This document shows, one piece after another, positions 4,242-55,304 of a stretch of 64,000 nucleotides of DNA. The translations under genes were made by a program, and so were the position numbers. Each line of letters starts with the position of its first letter. Positions within the stretch are counted from its first letter, which is position 1. Source of the stretch: Alphaproteobacteria bacterium (GTDB lineage: Bacteria > Pseudomonadota > Alphaproteobacteria > JANQMY01); contig CBDDFL010000001.1 in NCBI GenBank assembly GCA_965227095.1, forward strand, positions 85,539-149,538, given 5' to 3'. The notes beneath the pieces were generated by a model. The model made no database searches. It was not told where the DNA came from and was given only the letters and a program-made list of their open reading frames with translations.

Positions 4242-5775
4242 GGGATCGGCGTTCGGCCCTCGTCAGGCTCCGGCTTTCAGACTCGATTTGGCGTTGCTGT
4301 CGGATCAGCTCAGCCAGGACCAGCTCATTGGACCCGGACTTGCCAAGGGCACGGGCATTCCTCATGGCTTCGCGATATTCCCAGAGCGACACAGGCGGAA
4401 TTTCCAGGTTTCGGTACCGAGCTTCGACGTATCGGTCATTATCCAGTTCGACCCAGATCACCGAGAGGTCGCGAGGGTCGTAGCGGACGACCACCTTTCC
4501 ATCCCCGCGCCCGATGTGGCCTGCAAGCGCATCGGACCAGTACCGTATCTGGAACAGATGGATGCCGTCACGCCTGACCTTGCGCAGTTCACTTGGCAGA
4601 AAGCTCACCCGAAAGGCTTCAATCTCGAAGGGGATATCGCCCATCATTTGCTCTGAGAGCGCCTCCCATTTGGCAACGGGCGTGCAGCCAAGACTTGAAT
4701 GAATGCTGTTGTTGTAGCGGCAGATTTCCAGAGCAAACCAGCGATCGAAGTCGCTTAAGGTCATCGTGGCCATGCCCTCGGCGTCATAGTCGCCCTTGGC
4801 CACGACCGAGGATTGCGTTGTTCCAGGCAACAGGTGCACGGCCCCCATCATCGTGCCGATCAATCGTTCGATGTGCCCTCCGAAATGAGGACTGCCTGGC
4901 GGCCGATAGACCAGATCGATCCCCCATTCCGCACATGCCGACCGAAAGGCATGCGACCGGAAATCGCGCCCGTTATCGACGTGGATGCTATGCGGTTTAC
5001 CCTGCGCGGGCCAAGGAACATTGCGCACCAATTCCGCCAGAAGTTCCGCCTTGGGGGCCACAGCCTGTGTCAGGCAAAGCGCCACCGACAGACGCGAAGG
5101 TGCCTCGAGAGAGGTGTAATATCCGGTCACCATCCGCGTTGCGACGTCGATCGCCAGCGTGACCCAAGGCCGCCCAATTGGTTTGCGTTCAAAACTGTCG
5201 ACGAGAATGATGTCCGCAGGCGTATGGTCGATTTGCACGACCTCCAGTGGCCGGTTTGCCTTGTTGTCGCCTACGACCGGCGCAAATTTCTGGCGGGCCG
5301 CCTTTGCGCCTTCGCGTGCCTTGGCAATTTCACGGGCATCCATTGCATCCAGCCTGCGCTGAACCGTCCGACGTGTCGGCGGTTGCAAGCCCTGCTGCCA
5401 GCACGCGCTTCGGATTTCTGTCACGATGCGCGACAGGCTTGGGCGTTCCCGCCGTAAGAAATAACGGCGAAGATGTTCTTCGATCACCGCTTCCACCTTG
5501 CCGGATATCAAGGTTGTACCAGTCGGGCGGCCCCGTTTCCGAGAAGCCAGCGCGCTGGTGCGCCCACCCTCTTCGGCCAGACGCTTTATCCAGCGCCAGA
5601 CAGTCGCCCTGCTGACACCAAGCTCCCAAACGGCGTCATTGATGCCACTTTCCAGACTGCCAGTTCCTTTGAGATATGCCTGAACAAGCGGACGCAGAAC
5701 GGCCGCCCTGCGCGCCTCCTCAGCACCAGCGGCAACGAAGTCTTCGCGATCATCATCCATCAATATTTGCCACAC
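4126..5775 (-). CDS. tniA: TniA DDE transposase (Mu/TnsB-like, rve integrase core)
   Basis: N-terminal HTH region, then integrase core ...VVQIDHTPADIILVD...WVTLAIDVATRMVTGYY...HVDNGRDFRS... (D, D, E spacing typical of the TnsB/TniA/MuA family). Confidence 0.85.
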   Translation of the reverse strand: MWQILMDDDREDFVAAGAEEARRAAVLRPLVQAYLKGTGSLESGINDAVWELGVSRATVWRWIKRLAEEGGRTSALASRKRGRPTGTTLISGKVEAVIEEHLRRYFLRRERPSLSRIVTEIRSACWQQGLQPPTRRTVQRRLDAMDAREIAKAREGAKAARQKFAPVVGDNKANRPLEVVQIDHTPADIILVDSFERKPIGRPWVTLAIDVATRMVTGYYTSLEAPSRLSVALCLTQAVAPKAELLAELVRNVPWPAQGKPHSIHVDNGRDFRSHAFRSACAEWGIDLVYRPPGSPHFGGHIERLIGTMMGAVHLLPGTTQSSVVAKGDYDAEGMATMTLSDFDRWFALEICRYNNSIHSSLGCTPVAKWEALSEQMMGDIPFEIEAFRVSFLPSELRKVRRDGIHLFQIRYWSDALAGHIGRGDGKVVVRYDPRDLSVIWVELDNDRYVEARYRNLEIPPVSLWEYREAMRNARALGKSGSNELVLAELIRQQRQIESESRSLTRAERRSRERKGTLEGANSAVSTTEGLRAIDTGDTSRPLFKVERW

Positions 5776-10477: not shown

Positions 10478-11260
10478 ATGACCGATCTCTTATTGACTGA
10501 CATTCAAGACGGCATCGCCACACTGACCATCAACCGGCCGGAAAAGAAAAACGCCATGACCTATGCGATGCTCATGGAGTTTACGGAACTTGTCGGCACA
10601 CTCGGGCAAAATCCGGATGTCCGTGTTCTGATTATTACCGGCACGCAAGGGGCATTTTGTGCCGGAACCGACCTTGCGGATCTCGCGACCGTTCCCGGCA
10701 AAGAACGCGGGCTCCGAGGAAGCGCTGAAGAAAAACACCGGTGGTGGCCCATTGTGGAATGCCCCGTTCCGGTCATCGCGGCCATTGATGGTCCCGCCGT
10801 TGGCATGGGGGCCGAATTTTCCAGCCAATGCGACATTCGATTGGCGTCTTCCAATGCCCGTTTTGCTTGGAACTTCGCACAGCGAGGATTGGTGCCTGAT
10901 ACCGGCGCCGGATCTTGGCTACTGCCTCGCTTGATCGGGCATTCAAATGCCTTGCGTCTGCTGTACACGGCCGACTTCATCTCCGCCGAAGAAGCGCTTG
11001 ATCTTGGTTACCTTCACCAAGTTCTTCCGTCCGAAGACCTCTTGCCGGCGGCCAACGCGCTGGCCCAGAAAATGTTGCAAAGCTCGCCCTTTTCGTTACG
11101 CCGCATCAAATCCCTCGTCTACGAAGGCATGGGCAGTCACGTGGACGATCATATGCAGCGCCATACGCAAGCCATGTCGGAATGTTTCAAAAGTGATGAT
11201 CACGCTGAAGGCGTCGCCTCCTTCTTGGAACGCCGCCCCGCCAAATTCTCCGGCACCTAG
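10478..11260 (+). CDS. enoyl-CoA hydratase/isomerase (crotonase family)
   Basis: ITINRPEKKNAM..., GAFCAGTDL, VIAAIDGPAVGMG motifs; divergent from LysR. Confidence 0.85.
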   Translation: MTDLLLTDIQDGIATLTINRPEKKNAMTYAMLMEFTELVGTLGQNPDVRVLIITGTQGAFCAGTDLADLATVPGKERGLRGSAEEKHRWWPIVECPVPVIAAIDGPAVGMGAEFSSQCDIRLASSNARFAWNFAQRGLVPDTGAGSWLLPRLIGHSNALRLLYTADFISAEEALDLGYLHQVLPSEDLLPAANALAQKMLQSSPFSLRRIKSLVYEGMGSHVDDHMQRHTQAMSECFKSDDHAEGVASFLERRPAKFSGT

Positions 11261-11296
11261 ATCGATTTTGCCTTCTGCCGCTCAGGATACCAGACA

Positions 11297-13168
11297 ATGA
11301 CACGACATCTCCGCGAGACCTTTTTTCTATCAACGCTGTGCGCTGCTCTGGGTGCTTTGTCTGTTCTGACTGTGGCACCGGTGCAGGCAAACCATATCTT
11401 CCTCAGCACAACAATGTGTACCAAGGCGGACAATCGCGACCCACATACGTTAGAAACGGTTTACGCGCGGCCTGACCAAGCCGCCCCCTGCCGGGTGTAC
11501 CATACAAAACAAGGCCTACGCCGCCAGGTGGGCAGCGGCAACAACACCCCCCCTGGGGCCAAGAGTTGCGAATCTATCGAAAAGAACATTCTCAACAATC
11601 TCAAGGTCGGCGGTTATCAGTGCACGAATAATGTAAGCGCCGCCGGAGAAGGCCCTCATCACGATGTCTCGTCCTTGGTCGGGCGCACAGCAGCAGACCA
11701 TGGGCGCTATGCGGTCCTTATTGATGCCTTCAAAACGGAGGACGATGCGCAAATTTTCGCCGCCGGCATTAAGCGCATGCTGCCGCTTGTTCCTGTTCAT
11801 ATCCGCAAACTTACACAAAGTGGCCTGCCCTTTTCCGTTTATGCGGGCGCCGAGGCCTCAGAAGATGGGGCACGCGCTTTAGTCGAGAAAATAGGGGCGG
11901 CCGCATCCCCCGACGGACAGGTGCTCGATCTGTTCGCCCCCTTTGGCAGCAAAATTGCGGCGGACTGGCAACGATATGCCGTGGCTTCTTGTTTCCATCA
12001 GGGGCACGAAACACAGCGCGCCATGGCCCATTGCTCCGGTTTGGTCGTGGATGCAACACAGCTGACCTCGTGCCTAAATGGCGGATTGTGCAGGCCGCCA
12101 CAACTTGCCCCGATTTCGGGCACGCCCCTTAGCTCGGTGCCGGAACGAGCCCTGATCGAACAACCTTGGATCGGCGACCAAATTGCCGCCTGTGACGCAA
12201 ACGCCGAAGATGGAAACGTCACGGAATGCGGTATCAACCTGATGCTATCCGCGGATCAGCGCAAAATGCTCAGCTGCAGCCGCAGCTCGGAAACAGAAGC
12301 CGACGCGCTGGCCTGTATGGCGGGTCCGCGTCTTGGTCCGACCGAAAAGAAAATGCTCACCTGCCTACAGAACAATGACGGCACGGCGCCCATGTCCACG
12401 TGCCTCATGACCGATTATGCCGCCGCCGACAGCCGCGCGGTAACCACATGTTTCGACAACCGGACAACGGAAACCTTTGCCTCCTGTATCGCAACAAATG
12501 TCAGTGCCGTGACCGATCAGCGCGTTACCGAGTGCGCCCAAAAATCAGACAACGATCCTATCGCAACCGGTTTGTGTGCGGCGGAATTCTACCTCACGGC
12601 CCGTCAACGGCAGACTCTTGAGTGTTGGTCGCAAACGTCGTCGCTGACGGCTTTTGGTGTCTGTACATTGGGAAGCGATTTAGGCTTTTCGGCCTCTGAT
12701 CAGCTTGTCGCAACCTGTGCCGCCACATCGAAAGGCGACATTCACACCTTTGCGATGTGCGCCGGAGGCAGCCTGACCTTACGGGAAATGAAAGTATGTT
12801 CTGAAACCCCCGAAGATGTGCGCGCCGCCTGTTATCAAAGCGACAGCGCCATGACGGCGTTTTTGGACAGCACGCCGAAAGACCCGAATGCCGGTTTGAA
12901 GCCCACAAGCAAAATCATGGAGCAACGGGTGTCTGTGCTTGGGACCCCTGCCGTTCAAGAAAAAATCGAGCAGGTGGCTCAGGAAGAGCCATTGGTTGAC
13001 ACGGAAGCAACCGGCGCGCTACAGGCGGACCCCGCAATGGGGCCCGTGTTGGACGACAGTGCACCGCCTCCCCTGGTAGAGGTGCCCAACCCTCAGACCG
13101 AAATACCAAACGAGGTCACGCCGCCTCCAACAGTCGCAGAGGATGTTTTCCATCAACCATCCCCATAA
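11297..13168 (+). CDS. Secreted protein with SPOR-like domain followed by about 13 Cys-containing short repeats and a Pro-rich tail
   Basis: Signal peptide MTRHLRETFFLSTLCAALGALSVLTVAPVQA. Region YAVLIDAFKTEDDAQIFAAGIKRML...FSVYAGAEASEDGARAL resembles SPOR. Repeats of the form (M/V)(L/T)xC every about 12-14 aa (MLSCSRS, MLTCLQN, MSTCLMT, VTTCFDN, FASCIAT, VTECAQK, TLECWSQ, FGVCTLG, VATCAAT, FAMCAGG, MKVCSET). C-terminal PPPLVEVPNPQTEIPNEVTPPP. Confidence 0.7.
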   Translation: MTRHLRETFFLSTLCAALGALSVLTVAPVQANHIFLSTTMCTKADNRDPHTLETVYARPDQAAPCRVYHTKQGLRRQVGSGNNTPPGAKSCESIEKNILNNLKVGGYQCTNNVSAAGEGPHHDVSSLVGRTAADHGRYAVLIDAFKTEDDAQIFAAGIKRMLPLVPVHIRKLTQSGLPFSVYAGAEASEDGARALVEKIGAAASPDGQVLDLFAPFGSKIAADWQRYAVASCFHQGHETQRAMAHCSGLVVDATQLTSCLNGGLCRPPQLAPISGTPLSSVPERALIEQPWIGDQIAACDANAEDGNVTECGINLMLSADQRKMLSCSRSSETEADALACMAGPRLGPTEKKMLTCLQNNDGTAPMSTCLMTDYAAADSRAVTTCFDNRTTETFASCIATNVSAVTDQRVTECAQKSDNDPIATGLCAAEFYLTARQRQTLECWSQTSSLTAFGVCTLGSDLGFSASDQLVATCAATSKGDIHTFAMCAGGSLTLREMKVCSETPEDVRAACYQSDSAMTAFLDSTPKDPNAGLKPTSKIMEQRVSVLGTPAVQEKIEQVAQEEPLVDTEATGALQADPAMGPVLDDSAPPPLVEVPNPQTEIPNEVTPPPTVAEDVFHQPSP

Positions 13169-13367
13169 AGGGCGGATAGACGGAATACCCCACCAAGGCC
13201 TGAAGGTCCGGAGATAGGCCACGCACTGTTTCCTTGGACAACTCCAGCAAATAGTTTTCCTGTTGGCGCATATAGGCCTCGCAATATTGATGCGTCACAC
13301 CGAAACGCGGAGCCGTGGACATGTTTTCACCGCCGCCGTGCCATGTGGTGCCGAGAAAGAAGATCAC
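13116..13367 (-). pseudogene. Possible C-terminal remnant of a PhyH-family dioxygenase
   Basis: 83-aa ORF beginning FFLGTTWHGGGENMS (resembles the xFHxxTxHGSGxNxS region of phytanoyl-CoA dioxygenases); no upstream remainder present. Confidence 0.3.
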
Positions 13368-15208: not shown

Positions 15209-15460
15209 ATGACACGTAAACCGCTAGCTAAGGTCCTGGTGCTGGGAATTGATTCCGGCGAGCCGAGCATGGTCACCCGCTATGCTGCCGAAGGATTGCT
15301 GCCCAATATTCAACGCTTGCAGAACCGCTCCGTTTGGGGGCGCGTTGCAAATCCAAAAGGGTTCGAATCCAGCGCTGTTTGGCCCACCTTTCAAACGGCA
15401 AAACGGCCCGGCAATATGGGGCAGTATGAGGGCTTGCGGTATTTCGATCCGCAAACGTAC
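15209..15460 (+). pseudogene. Alkaline-phosphatase/nucleotide-pyrophosphatase-family paralog, 5' part (interrupted by IS)
   Basis: MTRKPLAKVLVLGIDSGEPSMV...YEGLRYFDPQT aligns with residues 1-84 of the intact paralog at 18531. The reading frame runs into the IS inverted repeat. Confidence 0.8.
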
Positions 15461-17137
15461 CAGACCGTGTGAAAACGGCGGCTTGGGATTCCTGTTGCGG
15501 CGTTTGTGGAGTATGCTGAGGCATGAGATACATGACCGGAACACCACGTTCGCAAGCGTTGCTTTTGCCGGAGCGCGTTGAAGACTACGTTGGCCCAAAC
15601 AATCCAGTGCGGTTTATCGATGCCTTTGTTGACGGGCTTGACCTCGCTGCAGCTGGGTTCGCGCGGGCGATGCCCAAGTCGACCGGCCGACCAGGTTACG
15701 ATCCGGCTGACCTGCTCAAACTCTACATCTACGGTTACTTAAACCGGGTGCGTTCAAGCCGCCGTCTGCAGGCCGAAGCGCACCGCAATCTTGAGGTGAT
15801 CTGGCTGATGCGGCATCTAAAGCCGGATTTCAAAACAATAGCCGATTTCCGGAAGGATAATCGATCAGCATTTCGGAACGTCTTCCGGCAGTTTGTTCGG
15901 CTGTGCCGAGACCTTGATCTTTTCGGGCGCGAGCTGCTGGCTGTGGACGGGACACGGATCAAGGCGGTGAACAACGGTGGCAAGAATTTCACCAAAGCTT
16001 CGCTCAAGCGCGATTTGGCTCTGATCGACAAGCGATTGGAACATTATCTCACCTCCCTCAACAATGCAGATGCAGAGGATGACGGTAACGCTGATATCGC
16101 GTCGAAGGAGGATATTTCCAAGAAAATCGAAGCTATGAAGGCGCGGCGCGAACGGCTGATCGGCCATCAAAAAGAACTGGAGGAGACCGGCGCGGACCAA
16201 CTGTCTCTGACCGACCCTGACGCCCGCGCCATGGATCGCAACACGCGCGTTGGCGTTGGCTATAACATCCAGATCGCCGTGGATGTGAAGCACAAGTTGA
16301 TCGCTGAGCAACAAGTTCATTCCAAGGTAAGCGACCTTGGGCTGCTCGCAACGACCGCGGTTGCGGCACGCGAGGCGCTGGATGTTGAGCGCATCAATGT
16401 GGTCGCGGACAAGGGGTATTTCGCGATCGAGGATATCGAGGCCAGCGAAGCAGGGAGCGCCTTTCCAATCGTCCCAAGGCCGCGGCGTGGGGCTGCCGCG
16501 AGTAGAAATTTGTTTGTCAAAGAGCGATTTCAATACGACGCGACGGCAGACCGCTACACCTGCCCCGGCGGTCAGACCCTCCCCCCGAATGGGAAAAAGC
16601 TTTACGTCCGAGATGGTGTTTTCGAGCAGAAATATCGCAACTACCGCGCCTGCAAGCAGTGCCAGCTCAAGCCGCGATGTACCGGAAGTGAGGCTCGAAC
16701 TGTTTCGCGATATGAAAACGAAGAGGTTTTAGAACGTATGGCTGAGCGCCTTGCCGCCCGCCCCGAAGCGCTCGATCAGCGCCGCGAGACCGTCGAGCAC
16801 CCCTTCGGATCCATCAAGCAATGGATGGGTCAAGGCGCGTTTTTGACACGCCGTCTGGATAACGTCCGTGGCGAGTTCAGCCTAACGGCGCTCGCCTACA
16901 ACATCCGCCGGGCGATCACATTGGTCGGAGTGCCGACCCTAATCCAAGCAGCACGGGTGTAGGCAACCAACCTGCGACTGTTTCGGCGCCAGAAAATGCG
17001 CGGCTGGCCCTGTCACGCCCTCAATAGCCTCTGCTGGCCGACGTTAGGCCACTCAAAGCCCATTTCCACACGATATATCCAAAGACCGATCGTTCTCCGT
17101 ATTCGCGGCCAGAAGGCCGCCGTTTTCACACGGTCTG
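15461..17137 (+). mobile_element. Intact IS1182-like (IS5-family) insertion sequence, 1677 bp
   Basis: 22-bp perfect terminal IRs CAGACCGTGTGAAAACGGCGGC (15461-15482 and rc 17116-17137), flanked by GTAC on both sides (4-bp TSD). Single transposase ORF. Confidence 0.85.
15523..16962 (+). CDS. IS1182-group (IS5-family) DDE transposase
   Basis: N-terminal ...PNNPVRFIDAFVDGLDL...GRPGYDPADLLKLYIYGYLNRVRSSRRLQ and C-terminal Cys cluster CPGGQTL...CKQCQLKPRC typical of IS1182-group transposases. Confidence 0.85.
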   Translation: MRYMTGTPRSQALLLPERVEDYVGPNNPVRFIDAFVDGLDLAAAGFARAMPKSTGRPGYDPADLLKLYIYGYLNRVRSSRRLQAEAHRNLEVIWLMRHLKPDFKTIADFRKDNRSAFRNVFRQFVRLCRDLDLFGRELLAVDGTRIKAVNNGGKNFTKASLKRDLALIDKRLEHYLTSLNNADAEDDGNADIASKEDISKKIEAMKARRERLIGHQKELEETGADQLSLTDPDARAMDRNTRVGVGYNIQIAVDVKHKLIAEQQVHSKVSDLGLLATTAVAAREALDVERINVVADKGYFAIEDIEASEAGSAFPIVPRPRRGAAASRNLFVKERFQYDATADRYTCPGGQTLPPNGKKLYVRDGVFEQKYRNYRACKQCQLKPRCTGSEARTVSRYENEEVLERMAERLAARPEALDQRRETVEHPFGSIKQWMGQGAFLTRRLDNVRGEFSLTALAYNIRRAITLVGVPTLIQAARV

Positions 17138-18461
17138 GTACGATTTCGACCACTTCACCGAAGATCAAGTGCCGGAAGACTATCTATGGCAGCGTTTGTC
17201 GCGTGCCGGTAAGCGTTGCTTCGTATTCGATGCGCCTTATGCGCTGCTTGACCGATCCATCAACGGTACGATGATTGTAGATTGGGGTCCTCATTTGCCC
17301 GCCAAAGGCTATGGCCAGGCTGATTTTCAAACGCAACCGCCCGAAGTGGCGGAAGAAGTGCTCGCGGTTGGCGGTCCCGACCCGTTCTGCGGTGAAATGT
17401 GTGATGACCTGTCTATCGCGTCAGCCGCGGACTATCGGGAGTTCGTCGATCAGCATATTGACCGCATACAGAGAAAAGCAAAGATCGCGAGTTACTTTCT
17501 GAAAAAGGGTGATTGGGATTACTTTCAGACTGTCTTCCCCGATATGCATTGTGTGGGACATCACGTGTGGCATATCAGCGATGAGAACCACCCTGACCAC
17601 GATCCGGACTTCGCGAAAAAGACCGGAGATTTGTACAAAGATGCGTTCATCGCCATTGACCAGGCCATCGGTGATATCATGGCCAATGTGGATGACCGGT
17701 CGCTCACCCTGCTCTATTTCAGTCATGGCATGCGCCAACAACGCACGGGCACGGGAGTGTTGGATCGGGCGCTGGCCTTGATTGACGGTCAGACCCTTGA
17801 TCTTGGCGGCGCGACCACTAAAACCCGCCTTAAGAAATTATGGCAAAAGACACCCGCTGAGTTTCGGTCTTTAGTGGCGCCCTTGAGACGCAAATTCCGC
17901 GGTGCTCTGGAAGTTTCCACCCTGCTTGAGAACCGGGACGACCGGCGTTTTTTCGAAGTGCATAACAATCGGCGCACGGGGGGTGTTCGCCTCAATCTGA
18001 TCGGCCGGGAAGCCAACGGAAAAGTAGCCCCGGAAGAATTCGACATGGTGCTGGATGAGATTATTGCGGAACTCTCCAAAATAACCAATGTGGAGTCCGG
18101 AACGCCGTTGGTGGAGGAATTTATCAAAACCCGCGACGTGCATGACGGCCATTGCATTGATCGGTTGCCGGACCTGCTGGTGCGCTGGAATCAGCACCAT
18201 CCGATCCGCGCGGTGACGTCGCCCACAATTGGCAGGATTGATCAGAACTTCGAAAACACGCGTAGCGGGGATCATTCCTCTTACGGACTATTCGCGGCGC
18301 AAGGCGGCGGCATTGAACGCACGCCCCTCAACCATGATGTGAATGCGGAAGACTTCGGCCTTACATTGATGGAAATATTGGGCGTGTCGCCTGAAGACAC
18401 TGATGGCGATGCCATCGAACAATTGCTGGTATTCGACCAGAAACTCGAATTGGCCAGTTGA
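17138..18461 (+). pseudogene. Alkaline-phosphatase-family paralog, 3' part (resumes after IS)
   Basis: In-frame YDFDHFTEDQVPEDYLWQRLSRAGKRCFVFDAPY... aligns with the intact paralog from residue 85 onward; GDHSSYGLFAAQG near the C-terminus. Confidence 0.8.
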
Positions 18462-50681: not shown

Positions 50682-53600
50682 TTACTCTCCTGCCACCGCG
50701 CTGACTTTTTGTGCGGGCGCGGCTTGCGGCCGGTCTTTCATTTCCGTCAAAGCCCGGCGATAATCCGTCGGGATCACTTTGACAAATTTCGGAAGATAGC
50801 TGTCCCAGTTATCCAGAATGTGACGTGCGCGTGCACTATCCGTGTACAGCATGTGTTTTTCGATGAGACGTTTTAACCGCGCCGCATCATGGCTCAACAT
50901 ATCTGCCGCGATGTCTGCGTCGGACACAGTTCCTTCGTCTCGGATTTTTTCCAGTTCAACCATCGCCGGATTGCACCGCTCTTTGAAGCAATCGTTTTCG
51001 TCCAACACATAGGCCAAACCGCCACTCATACCGGCGGCAAAGTTACGGCCTGTTTCGCCCAGCACCACCACGACACCACCGGTCATATATTCGCAACCGT
51101 GGTCGCCGACGCCTTCAACAACCGCATGCGCGCCGGAGTTACGAACGCCAAACCGTTCTCCGCCGACGCCTCGGAAGTAGCATTCGCCGCCGATGGCGCC
51201 ATAGAGCACCGTGTTGCCGACAATAATGTTTTCTTCAGGCTTAAAACTGCTGACCGATGGCGGATAAATCACCAAGCGGCCACCGGACAAGCCTTTGCCC
51301 ACATAATCGTTGGCATCGCCTTCCAATTCGAAGGTCACCCCTTTCGACAGGAAACCGCCGAAGGTTTGCCCGGCATTCCCGGTAAACTTCACATGCAAGG
51401 TCTCGTCACCAAGGCCTTCATGCCCATGTTTTTCGGCAATGCGGCCCGCCAGCATAGCCCCAACGGTACGGTTCACATTGGTGATCTTCGTATCAATGCG
51501 CACCGGCGTGCCATCGTTGATGGCCGGTTGGGCCTCCGCAATCAGGGTGTGATCCAGTGCTTTGTCCAGGCCATGGTCTTGACGTTCACAATTGTAGATT
51601 GCCACATCCGGCCCGACGTCCAACTCATGGATCAACGGGGCCAGGTTCAGCCCTTTCGCTTTCCAATGTTCGACCGCTTCACGCACTTCCAACTTGTCAC
51701 GGCGGCCGATCATCTCATCGAAGGAACGGAAGCCAAGCTGCGACATCAGTTGGCGCACCTCATTGGCCACAAAGGTGAAGAAGTTGATCACATGTTCTGG
51801 CTGGCCGGTGAACAATTTCCGCAATTCCGGATCTTGGGTGGCGACACCGACAGGACAGGTATTCAGATGACATTTGCGCATCATAATACAGCCGGCGGAA
51901 ATCAACGCCGCCGTGGCGATGCCAAATTCATCCGCCCCCAGAAGGGCGCCGACCACAACATCGCGGCCGGTACGGATACCACCATCCACCTGAACGGCGA
52001 TGCGGCCGCGCAACCGATTGCGCACCAGCGTCTCGTGGGTTTCGGCCAAGCCGATTTCCCATGGGCTGCCGGCACTTTGGATCGAAGTGATGGGGCTCGC
52101 CCCTGTACCGCCGTCGAAACCGGAAATGGTCACATGATCCGCATGCGCCTTTGCAACGCCGGCAGCCACGGTGCCCACACCAATTTCGGACACCAGCTTC
52201 ACACTGATGCGGGCCTCTGGATTCACATTTTTGAGGTCGTGGATCAGCTGCGCCAAATCCTCGATGGAATAAATGTCATGGTGCGGCGGTGGTGAGATGA
52301 GGCCCACACCCGGTGTCGAATGGCGCACCCGCGCAATCCATTCATCCACCTTGTGGCCCGGCAACTGTCCGCCTTCACCGGGCTTTGCACCTTGCGCCAT
52401 CTTGATTTGAATGTCCGACGCATTGACCAAATACTCCGCCGTGACGCCAAACCGGCCCGACGCCACCTGCTTGATGGCCGACCGCATCAGATCGCCTTTT
52501 TCGTCCGGTTGGTAGCGGGACGATTCTTCCCCGCCTTCGCCACTATTGGACTTGCCGCCCATGCGGTTCATGGCGATGGCCAAAGTGGTATGCGCTTCCC
52601 AAGAGATGGAGCCGAAGGACATGGCGCCCGACGCAAAACGCTTCACGATCTCGGACGCCGGCTCAACTTCATCCAGCGGCACGGGCGTGTCCGCTAATTT
52701 GAACTCGAAAAGACCGCGCAAATTGCGCAGTTTTTTGTCCTGCACATTCATCCGCTTGGAGAAGGCGAGATATTTGGCTTCATCGCCCGACCGCGCCGCA
52801 TGTTGTAGCAGGCCGATGGTTTCCGGTGTCCAAGCGTGTTCCTCACCGCGCAAGCGATAGGCCACTTCGCCCCCCACATCCAACGCATCGCGATAGATCA
52901 GAGCATCGCTATAGGCGATGCTGTGGCGCCGAACGGTTTCTTCGGCCACTTCCGCAAGACCCACACCATCGATCGCGCAATGGGTGCCGGTAAAGTAATT
53001 GTCCAAGAATTCTTGGCTCAACCCGACCGCATCAAAAATCTGGGCGCCGCAATAGGACTGATAGGTGGAAATGCCCATTTTGGACATCACCTTCAAAATC
53101 CCCTTGCCCACCGCTTTTACATACCGCTTGTGGATATCTTCCACGCTGAGATCACCGGGAAGGGACGCCTTCAAGGACGTCAGCGTGTCGAGGGCCAAAT
53201 AAGGATTGATCGCTTCGGCGCCATAGCCTGCCAGCAAGCAGAAATCATGGACCTTGCGCGCTTCGCCGGTCTCCACCACCAGGCCAACTTCCGTACGCAG
53301 ACCTTCACGAATAAGGTGATGATGCACACCTGCCGTGGCCAGTAAAGCAGGGATCGCCACGCGATCCGCGTCCATTGCCCGGTCCGACAAGATCAAGATA
53401 TTGCAGCCTTCGCCTTGGGCTTCTTCGGCCAACGCGAAGATCCGCTCAAGCGCGCTTTCCATGCCGGCGGCCCCTTCGATCGCCGGATAGGTGATATCAA
53501 TTGTCTTTGCACGGAAGGCATCGTCCAAATGATTTTCGATGCGGCGAATACGTTCCAAGTCGAAGTTCGACAGGATTGGCTCGCGCACTTCCAAGCGCAA

Positions 53601-55304
53601 TTGGGAGCCGCCCTTATCATGGTCCAACAGGTTCGGGCGCGGCCCGATGAGGGACACGAGGGACATCACCGATTCCTCGCGGATCGGGTCGATCGGCGGG
53701 TTGGTCACCTGCGCAAAACACTGTTTGAAATAGTCGTAGAGAACCTTCGATCGGTCGGACAGCACCGCGATGGGCGTGTCCCGCCCCATGGAGCCAATCG
53801 GGTCTTGGCCGCTTTCCACCATGGGCATCAAGAAAGTACGAATGTCTTCTTGCGTATAACCAAACGCTTGCTGGCAATCGAGCAAGGTTTTTGGATCCGG
53901 CGGCATGGGTGCCACTTCGGTCGGCAAATCTTCCAAATGGATCTGGGTTTCGTTCAGCCATTGCTGATAGGGCTTGTTGTTCGCAAGCTCTGCTTTCAGC
54001 TCCTCATCGTCGATGATGCGGCCTTGTTCCATATCGATCAGGAACATCTTGCCCGGCTGCAAACGCCATTTTTTGACAATCTTTTCCTCCGGAATGGGCA
54101 ACACACCCACTTCCGATCCCATGACCACCAGATCGTCGTCGGTCACCACATAACGGGCGGGACGCAACCCATTGCGGTCCAGCGTCGCGCCGATTTGGCG
54201 TCCGTCGGTAAAGGCGACAGCGGCCGGCCCGTCCCAGGGCTCCATCATGGCAGCGTGATATTCGTAGAAAGCGCGGCGATCTTCATCCATGAGTGGATTG
54301 TCGTTCCACGCTTCCGGGATCATCATCATCATGGCGTGGGACAAGGAATAACCGCCCGCCACCAGCAGCTCGAGCGCATTGTCGAAGGTCGCCGAATCCG
54401 ACGACCCATCGCCGATCAACGGCCATAATTTGTTGAGATCGTTGCCCAGGATCGCCGAGACCATGGAATGGCGCCGCGCCGCCATCCAATTGATGTTGCC
54501 GCGAACCGTGTTGATCTCGCCATTGTGGCACAGATAACGGAACGGCTGCGCCAGCTTCCACGATGGGAAGGTATTAGTAGAAAAACGTTGATGCACCAAC
54601 GCTAAGGCGGAGGTACAGCGCGGGTCCGTCAGATCCTTGAAATAGGACGGAAGGTTCGGCGCCAACACCATGCCCTTGTACACAATCGTCCGTGTAGAAA
54701 GTGACGTGATGTAAAAATCTTCCGCAGGCTGACCAGCGCGGCTTTTTGCGACGCGGTGCGCTTGCTTGCGGATCACGAAGAGCTTGCGCTCGAACGCATC
54801 TTGGTCCGGGGTATCGGCACCCCGCCCCACAAAGAACTGACGAATGATTGGTTCGTCCGGTTTGACGCTTTCACCCAGCACGGCATTATCCGTGGGCACA
54901 TCGCGCCAGCCCAGCATCTTTTGGCCTTCTTGCGCGACCGTGTCCGACACCGCTTGGGCACAAATTTCATCAAGCCCTTTTATCGGCGGAATGAATACCA
55001 GCCCGACGGCGTAGTCCCCTTCCGTCGGCAGGTCCATGCCTTTCGACGCACAATCTTCACGCAGCAATGTATCGGGCACCTGAATCAAAATGCCCGCACC
55101 ATCGCCCGCCAATGGGTCCGCCCCAACAGCGCCACGGTGATCCAAGTTCACGAGGATCTCTAATCCCTGCCGGACGATTTCATGGCTTTTGCGGCCTTTA
55201 ATGTTGGCCACGAAGCCAACGCCGCAATTGTCATGTTCCTTGTCGGCACGGTAAAGCCCGCCCGTCATCTGCTTGTTCTGTTCCAGCATTCCCACAGTCG
55301 CCAA
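50682..55304 (-). CDS. gltB: Glutamate synthase large subunit
   Basis: 1540 aa; N-terminal Ntn amidotransferase CGVGFVA, FMN/Fe-S central domain, C-terminal GXGG beta-helix. Confidence 0.95.

Follow-up and report, generated by a model that had tools for sequence, protein, structure and literature searches.

The window analyzed here, a stretch of 64,000 nucleotides from the alphaproteobacterial contig CBDDFL010000001.1 (positions 85,539 to 149,538), carries a genuine gene for a multi-domain protein of 623 residues that is predicted to be exported. In this protein a signal peptide, a small four-cysteine domain and a SPOR-like domain precede a tandem array of two-Cys units, each about 29 residues long, and the array belongs to a sizeable, widespread and uncurated family of two-Cys helical hairpins. 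All cysteines of the mature protein are invariant among orthologues, and neither the sequence of the repeat nor its predicted fold matches a known family. We tentatively propose that the protein is a periplasmic α-solenoid stapled by disulfides, which would act as a rigid scaffold or spacer near the peptidoglycan and would be held there by a SPOR-like domain of possibly weakened affinity. This is the account that we find most plausible, with a confidence that stays a little short of even.

The repeat is defined by its cysteine spacing, gaps of 11–14 residues alternating with gaps of about 16. The eight clean units have their cysteines at positions 299/311, 327/340, 356/369, 385/397, 413/427, 443/456, 474/488 and 501/512, so that the gaps from C299 to C512 read, in order, 12, 16, 13, 16, 13, 16, 12, 16, 14, 16, 13, 18, 14, 13 and 11. 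When 16 cysteines were placed at random over the same span, none of 2,000,000 trials gave all gaps within 11–18. A hidden Markov model (HMM) of the unit reached 90 bits with the protein, whereas 500 shuffles matched in composition never gave more than 8 bits. With one unit left out at a time and 1000 shuffles for comparison, units 1, 4, 5, 6, 7 and 8 were each recognized (no more than 4 shuffles scored as high, unit 1 being the case with 4), unit 9 was marginal (22 of 1000), and units 2, 3 and 10 did not reach significance by this test from their sequence alone. Alignment of the units separates two types of half-site in each, A ('s..dQ(R/K)..l.C') and B ('..fa.C'). Of the two degenerate units that open the array, the second has a spacing of just 6 residues between its cysteines, after which come 34 residues devoid of cysteine; all four cysteines of these units are invariant in the orthologues, and the region has low values of the predicted local distance difference test (pLDDT) in the full-length structure model. 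The end of the array reads '...LTLREMKVCSETPEDVRAAC', with no GCFG.NN cap (see below) in this protein or in its orthologues, and no paralogue of the gene was found in the window.

A sequence-only reading of the same DNA had already located the open reading frame (ORF) exactly, had recognized a clear signal peptide and had counted at least 24 cysteines; there are 25 (4% of the residues), 24 of them in the mature protein, and the remaining one, C15, lies inside the signal peptide and is not conserved. Its account of the repeat has to be revised: instead of some 13 one-cysteine repeats, one every 12–14 residues, there are eight clean and two degenerate units with two cysteines each, and the (M/V)(L/T)xC motif that it proposed fits only five sites, all of type A. 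Nor do all the cysteines fall within repeats, since C41, C65, C91 and C109 sit in a separate N-terminal domain.

The conservation of the cysteines extends well beyond close relatives. A search of 5.8 billion sequence clusters retrieved just six full-length relatives, 98–45% identical to the protein and all from metagenome-assembled genomes (MAGs) of uncultured, free-living environmental Alphaproteobacteria; in these six, 24 of 24 mature cysteines are invariant. Word-indexed homologue searches returned few relatives (6, 14 and 5), and the breadth of the family became visible only when 1.84 billion representatives were searched exhaustively with a profile: 414 representative proteins matched at E ≤ 0.001, and 221 of them reached E ≤ 1e-10. 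An HMM of the repeat module alone was matched by 147 of the 149 best representatives, and the gaps between cysteines across the 150 best matches peak at 13, 14 and 16. Every cysteine column is conserved in an alignment of 23 module sequences that are 20–27% identical, and the 16 cysteine columns of the array are 95–100% occupied in 63 near-complete distant modules of about 20–27% identity, so that the periodicity noted in the sequence-only reading is indeed conserved among homologues. The protein fits the definition of the family in its alternating gaps (about 13–14 and about 16), in the A-site 'Q(R/K)...C' and in a terminal gap of 9–11.

Members of the family are 197–1060 residues long and contain 4–19 units (median 8). 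The complete architecture of N-terminal domain, SPOR-like segment and repeats recurs in a few relatives; most have the repeat region alone in common, fused to varied N-terminal domains that include SPOR (sometimes several in tandem), DUF1036, TPR and VHL-beta. A hydrophobic region resembling a signal peptide is present in 114 of the 168 family proteins that start with methionine, and the sole named organism among the sources is a Nitrosomonas MAG. In 75 of the 150 best matches the sequence carries a GCFG.NN cap, in the form 'LT.REL.KC..GIGG..GCFG.NN' followed by GPG..NN repeats; cap and repeats are both absent from the protein studied here and from its orthologues. In many distant members (P0164, P0172, P0174, P0175 and others) the array is succeeded by this cap and by several 'GPG..NNE(I/L)V' repeats, and the C-terminus of some distant members is a conserved '...GG(H/F)R(I/V)C(I/L)PWC', which our protein lacks. 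The GPG..NN repeats and the terminal PWC motif resemble additional modules or a sorting signal.

Comparison with known domains bears out the earlier statement that the repeat is not a recognized family. Pfam and NCBIfam gave no match to the repeat in the protein at E ≤ 10, and among 76 relatives there was a single weak match, to CagY_M (PF07337; E = 3.2e-4). The Sel1 model (PF08238) was matched by the protein at no E-value up to 10 and by none of the 76 relatives at E ≤ 0.01, and the units, at 27–31 residues, are shorter than the Sel1 repeat of about 36–44. Sequences in the PDB yielded nothing for the repeat, either with the protein alone or with the module profile. The structure model of the full-length chain was poor (mean pLDDT 53.5), and a Foldseek search with it returned noise only. 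A model of the module by itself, built on an alignment of 21 sequences, was confident (pLDDT 83.5, predicted template modeling score 0.73) and consists of 16 helices with one cysteine in each; compared with the PDB by Foldseek, it found nothing at E ≤ 0.001 and no template modeling (TM) score above 0.18, and no Sel1-like super-helical fold superposable on HcpB or HcpC emerged. A match of the protein to Peptidase_M48 (E = 0.24) was dismissed as noise. Searches of the literature on SPOR domains combined with cysteine-rich repeats, and on DUF1036, brought up nothing relevant.

The number and position of the cysteines suggest how they may be paired. In the oxidizing periplasm, each unit would fold into a helix–loop–helix hairpin whose two invariant cysteines, one per helix, form a disulfide within the unit, which would place some ten staples in the repeat region and probably two more in the N-terminal domain; the hairpins are predicted to stack into an all-α solenoid or rod that is rigid and resistant to proteases. 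Pairing within units is favored because it satisfies every cysteine locally, while a staggered arrangement would strand an orphan cysteine at both ends of the array. The number of cysteines is even in 168 of 185 family arrays, the first gap is short (12–14) in 77% of arrays and the last (9–11) in 88%, and the spacing of unit 2 also speaks for pairing within the unit. The gap between units has a sharp mode at 16, and insertions and deletions in the alignment fall mostly in the loop from A to B within units. Two cysteines per unit are seen, as in CagY, and their bonding within the unit would follow from the parity and the boundaries of the arrays. The suggestion in the sequence-only reading of a disulfide-rich envelope module seems to us the best one.

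Up to 12 conserved cysteine pairs in an exported protein might also be redox-active, serving as a thiol–disulfide buffer, a relay or an envelope redox sensor and not as static staples, and a redox-switch role has been speculated upon for the CagY repeat region (PMC10706595). We regard this as very unlikely: neither a thioredoxin-like fold nor a CxxC active-site motif is seen in the protein, the conserved synteny includes no Dsb or Ccm genes, and a single buried pair in each structural repeat is the usual pattern for structural disulfides. The abundance of the cysteines, their strict invariance and their placement in helices would likewise suit the binding or storage of Cu(I), Zn or another thiophilic metal, as in the periplasmic copper-storage proteins, whose helices are lined with cysteines. 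Such a metal-binding role, which had been among the first suggestions, appears highly improbable. The protein lacks CxxC and CxxxC motifs altogether, and in 180 family proteins they were counted just 32 times among 4389 cysteines; units 3–10 contain a single histidine between them; the signal is of the Sec and not the twin-arginine type, so that an unfolded chain would presumably meet the oxidizing machinery of the periplasm; and an even number of cysteines per array, with two per unit, fits pairwise bonds. Disulfide stapling remains, in our opinion, the preferable explanation for the array.

The remainder of the protein bears on where such an array would be located. The features of its N-terminus point to export of the unfolded chain through a Sec signal peptide. 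At the predicted cleavage site, VQA|NH, residues A31, N32 and H33 are invariant among homologues and the residues before them are variable, and neither a twin-arginine motif nor a lipobox was seen in the N-terminal sequence; a lipoprotein reading of 'LSTLC15' was rejected, as position −1 is leucine and C15 is not conserved. The domain that follows is the most conserved part of the protein among the orthologues. Predicted to contain five strands and one helix (pLDDT 52–82), it gives no Pfam match and no match to PDB sequences, and among 149 representatives it precedes the Cys-repeat array in 21, about half of which have a detected SPOR-like segment. It seems to be a domain of its own that has not been described.

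The SPOR domain has an RNP-like (ribonucleoprotein-like) fold in which two helices back an antiparallel sheet of four strands (PMC6895207). In the segment assigned to it here, strands are predicted at residues 138–145, 167–171 and 179–186, helices at 148–161 and 189–201 and a short strand at about 209 (pLDDT 60–72), a β-α-β-β-α order that, as modeled, agrees with this fold. Six of seven orthologues match Pfam SPOR, the best at E = 3.3e-7, and one of the relatives (P0006) carries a precomputed SPOR match. The best PDB match of a profile of the SPOR-like family is the founding SPOR domain, that of CwlC (1x60; E = 0.0076), with FtsN (1uta) also listed. The β1 motif reads YAVLIDAF where CwlC has YKVQIGAF, and F145, the equivalent of the glycan-stacking F274 of RlpA, four residues past the conserved glutamine, is invariant in all 7 orthologues. 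In other members of the family the repeat module is preceded by clear SPOR domains, either one alone or a tandem. Two long members, P0053 (1060 residues) and P0059 (1026 residues), contain at least two tandem SPOR-like domains with the motif YFAV(L/V)GSF, which lacks the canonical glutamine, followed by at least 14 Cys-hairpin units; SPOR-like modules without this glutamine seem to be common in the family.

Behind the array, the C-terminal tail is a low-confidence region that looks disordered in the model. It can be aligned among close relatives only and is not conserved further out; the Pro-rich tail described from the sequence is present (PPPLVEVPNPQTEIPNEVTPPP) without being a conserved part of the protein. 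The coordinates of all these features are collected in Table 1.

Table 1. Features of the gene and of the protein that it encodes (positions in the window)
Feature	Position	Strand	Details
Protein-coding gene	11297..13168	+	623 aa, stop codon included; ORF list and 6 full-length orthologues (45–98% identity)
Shine-Dalgarno-like AGGA	11284..11287	+	9 nt 5' of ATG; read from sequence
Sec-type signal peptide (predicted), aa 1–31	11297..11389	+	predicted cleavage after VQA31; R3/R6 n-region, hydrophobic core of about 20 residues, AxA-like site
N-terminal domain, aa 32–125	11390..11671	+	C41, C65, C91, C109 invariant; motif C...PC...CE.xE...NL...C
SPOR-like domain, aa 130–215	11684..11941	+	Pfam match aa 135–209; Leu141 codon 11717–11719; Phe145 kept
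Two degenerate repeat units, aa 223–289	11963..12163	+	Cys pairs 232/246 and 259/265; then Pro-rich linker of about 25 residues
Eight clean tandem two-Cys helical-hairpin units, aa 290–520	12164..12856	+	27–31 residues each; spacing, unit alignment, HMM tests, conservation, module model
Acidic, Pro-rich C-terminal tail, aa 521–623	12857..13165	+	18 Pro, 17 D+E, 5 K+R; contains PPPLVEVPNPQTEIPNEVTPPP; pLDDT 26–46

Taken as a whole, the proposed arrangement is one in which the SPOR-like domain, ahead of the array, would set the protein on the peptidoglycan, the last three units, which are the best conserved, would likely offer a surface for a partner, and the disordered acidic and Pro-rich tail may serve as a variable spacer. 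An interaction or spacer module is supported because the repeat combines with SPOR, DUF1036, TPR and VHL domains and spans 4–19 units. Several points weigh against this arrangement. The match of the protein to Pfam SPOR (PF05036), although it covers nearly the whole profile, reaches only E = 0.0039 and 17.9 bits, where the gathering score is 21. The conserved SPOR glutamine (RlpA Q270, FtsN Q251, DamX Q351) contacts denuded glycan by a hydrogen bond, and its mutation lowers septal localization (PMC6895207); the position is occupied by Leu141 in our protein, by leucine in P0001–P0003, its three closest relatives, by arginine in P0004 and by glutamine only in P0005 and P0006. Cysteines are almost never lost from the 95–100% occupied columns, and their co-loss therefore carries no signal on pairing. 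No conserved neighboring genes that would point to a partner or a pathway were found among the distant members, and the source names of the family are all 'hypothetical protein' or 'uncharacterized membrane protein'. The SPOR-like segment of the first description matches over residues 135–209 and is supported by the orthologues, while it falls below the Pfam threshold and lacks the key glutamine. Tethering to peptidoglycan, as far as the domain content allows it to be judged, is plausible for the family; for this protein it is uncertain, because the key glycan-contacting glutamine is Leu141, and binding to denuded glycan may be weakened accordingly.

The length of this repeat protein, its disordered Pro-rich tail and the variation in repeat number across the family would also be compatible with a Cys-stapled rod outside the outer membrane, that is, with a surface or secreted adhesin or effector that attaches to a host, to a surface or to another cell, and the disulfide-rich helical repeats of the Helicobacter Hcp proteins and of CagY are active on the surface of the cell or towards the host (PMC3851747, PMC10706595). 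We consider this unlikely, and no indication was found for the adhesin that had been suggested at first. SPOR-type domains act within the periplasm (PMC6895207), Pfam and NCBIfam revealed no autotransporter, β-barrel, type I secretion, sortase or lipoprotein signals, no secretion-system genes lie nearby in the window or in the orthologous loci, and the carriers are free-living environmental MAGs. A periplasmic scaffold near the cell wall is the location and role that we prefer.

The neighborhood of the gene raises the question of a link to the adjacent genes. The gene order in the window is Abhydrolase_2, ion channel, LysR (on the minus strand), enoyl-CoA hydratase, the gene under study and Abhydrolase_3. 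The stop codon of the hydratase gene (11258–11260) lies 36 nt upstream of the start codon, inspection of the intergenic gap disclosed no terminator-like site, and a hydratase gene is located directly upstream in the orthologous loci L012 and L011 as well, all of which would be expected if the protein were a functional partner of the LysR regulator and the hydratase in a single operon or pathway. Nevertheless, other genes intervene in L001 and L002 (an SDR gene and an ORF of 133 residues in one, a GDPD gene on the opposite strand in the other), the orthologous loci all share wide synteny by descent, distant members of the family have unrelated neighbors with neither LysR nor hydratase, and no shared chemistry is evident between a CoA enzyme of the cytoplasm and a Cys-repeat protein destined for export. 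The co-occurrence with the LysR/hydratase pair to which the sequence-only reading had drawn attention is therefore synteny by descent within one lineage, absent near distant members, and is no evidence of a shared function, and we give the partnership, which is largely refuted, next to no credence.

Cell-wall-related genes lie a few kb from the gene in two of the orthologous loci: in L001 a gene at 4638–5465 on the minus strand with weak matches to Glyco_hydro_19 and PG_binding_1, and in L002 a Hydrolase_2 (SleB-like) gene at 1857–2486, also on the minus strand. Both are absent from the corresponding place in the window, and they may point faintly to a peptidoglycan theme or be coincidental.

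Other features of the window were recorded alongside. A convergent ORF of 83 residues (13116–13367, minus strand) that overlaps the 3' end of the gene is what remains of the C-terminal part of a dioxygenase of the PhyH family; it is 93% identical to residues 199–280 of a 280-residue protein encoded in L012, the N-terminal 198 codons being missing in the window, as is the TetR gene that adjoins the PhyH gene in L012. Further downstream, an insertion sequence of about 1.7 kb (about 15450–17148) is bounded by 33-nt terminal inverted repeats (15450–15482 and 17116–17148; 94% complementary) and encodes a DDE transposase of 479 residues (DDE_Tnp_1_6, DUF772; 15523..16962). The element has divided a type I phosphodiesterase gene (15209–18461, plus strand) into an ORF of 87 residues (15209..15472) and one of 430 residues (17169..18461), which correspond to residues 1–84 and 94–519 of the intact 523-residue orthologue in L012. 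Two ORFs of 479 residues, starting at 15523 and 21753, were considered as copies of one insertion sequence, an idea that was rejected since no DNA repeat links them. An ordinary large subunit of glutamate synthase (GATase_2, Glu_syn_central, Glu_synthase, GXGXG) is encoded at 50682–55304 on the minus strand, and an Rfam scan of the window found no RNA genes. With a GC content of about 55–58%, the window looks like normal chromosomal DNA.

A broader proposal, more doubtful than likely in our estimation, is that the hairpin repeat with two Cys in about 29 residues constitutes an undescribed fold family, a disulfide-stapled α-solenoid distributed across hundreds of sequence clusters from environmental Proteobacteria. 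Its members would act as rigid periplasmic struts or 'rulers', the length of which is set by the number of units (4–19) and which are tethered to the cell wall by N-terminal domains such as SPOR, DUF1036 and others, with the four-Cys domain as a second new domain. If this is correct, the repeat would represent a new building block of the envelope, a helical repeat with one disulfide per hairpin that is recombined with cell-wall-targeting domains over a five-fold range of lengths; a curated domain model could then be provided for several hundred 'hypothetical' proteins, and a compact and very stable repeat scaffold might find use in protein engineering. The change from glutamine to leucine in the SPOR-like domain, set against the orthologues that bear the glutamine, offers a natural test of the need for that residue in glycan binding. 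In practice, the known members all come from uncultured organisms, and no specific cellular process is indicated.

Among known systems, the four-helix bundles of the Csp-type copper-storage proteins have CxxxC and CxxC motifs that line their core and are exported by the Tat pathway; our protein differs from them in having neither these motifs nor a twin-arginine signal, and its model is an array of 16 helices in hairpins. In the SPOR proteins FtsN, DamX, DedD, RlpA and CwlC the SPOR domain is usually C-terminal. The segment of about 75 residues discussed here resembles theirs, including a β1 motif of the form Y-x-V-x-I-x-A-F, yet it is internal and followed by a large Cys-repeat array, and the equivalent of RlpA Q270 is leucine (glutamine in two orthologues). 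With the TPR and Sel1 scaffolds of the periplasm, such as CpoB/YbgF, NlpI, the N-terminal domain of LpoA and ExoR, the protein may share, by analogy, a role as an α-solenoid platform or spacer in the envelope near the peptidoglycan. Those scaffolds are not known to be stapled by disulfides, and the protein matches them in neither sequence nor fold, although one member of its family carries a TPR beside the module.

The closest parallels in kind come from Helicobacter. In the type IV secretion system of H. pylori, CagY's middle repeat region forms a long tandem series of short modules that are helical and have exactly two cysteines each, for which a disulfide has been modeled between consecutive helices of one module (PMC10706595). 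This region (the 'DC-EC repeat', CagY_M) is like the array described here in its tandem short helical modules with two cysteines apiece; the protein differs in the lack of a sequence match, of a VirB10 domain and of a secretion system, and the disulfides of CagY are themselves modeled and not solved. HcpB and HcpC are exported α/α repeat proteins with two cysteines per helix-pair repeat, in which disulfides lock the super-helical stacking (PMC3851747), and these Sel1-like repeat proteins of Helicobacter agree with ours in its predicted export, in its predicted helix-pair repeat and in the number of cysteines per repeat. The protein thus resembles the disulfide-stabilized helical repeats of Hcp and CagY in kind without qualifying as a member of either group, and, if the proposed fold is correct, its family would be an addition to the small set of disulfide-stabilized α-solenoids that these two exemplify.

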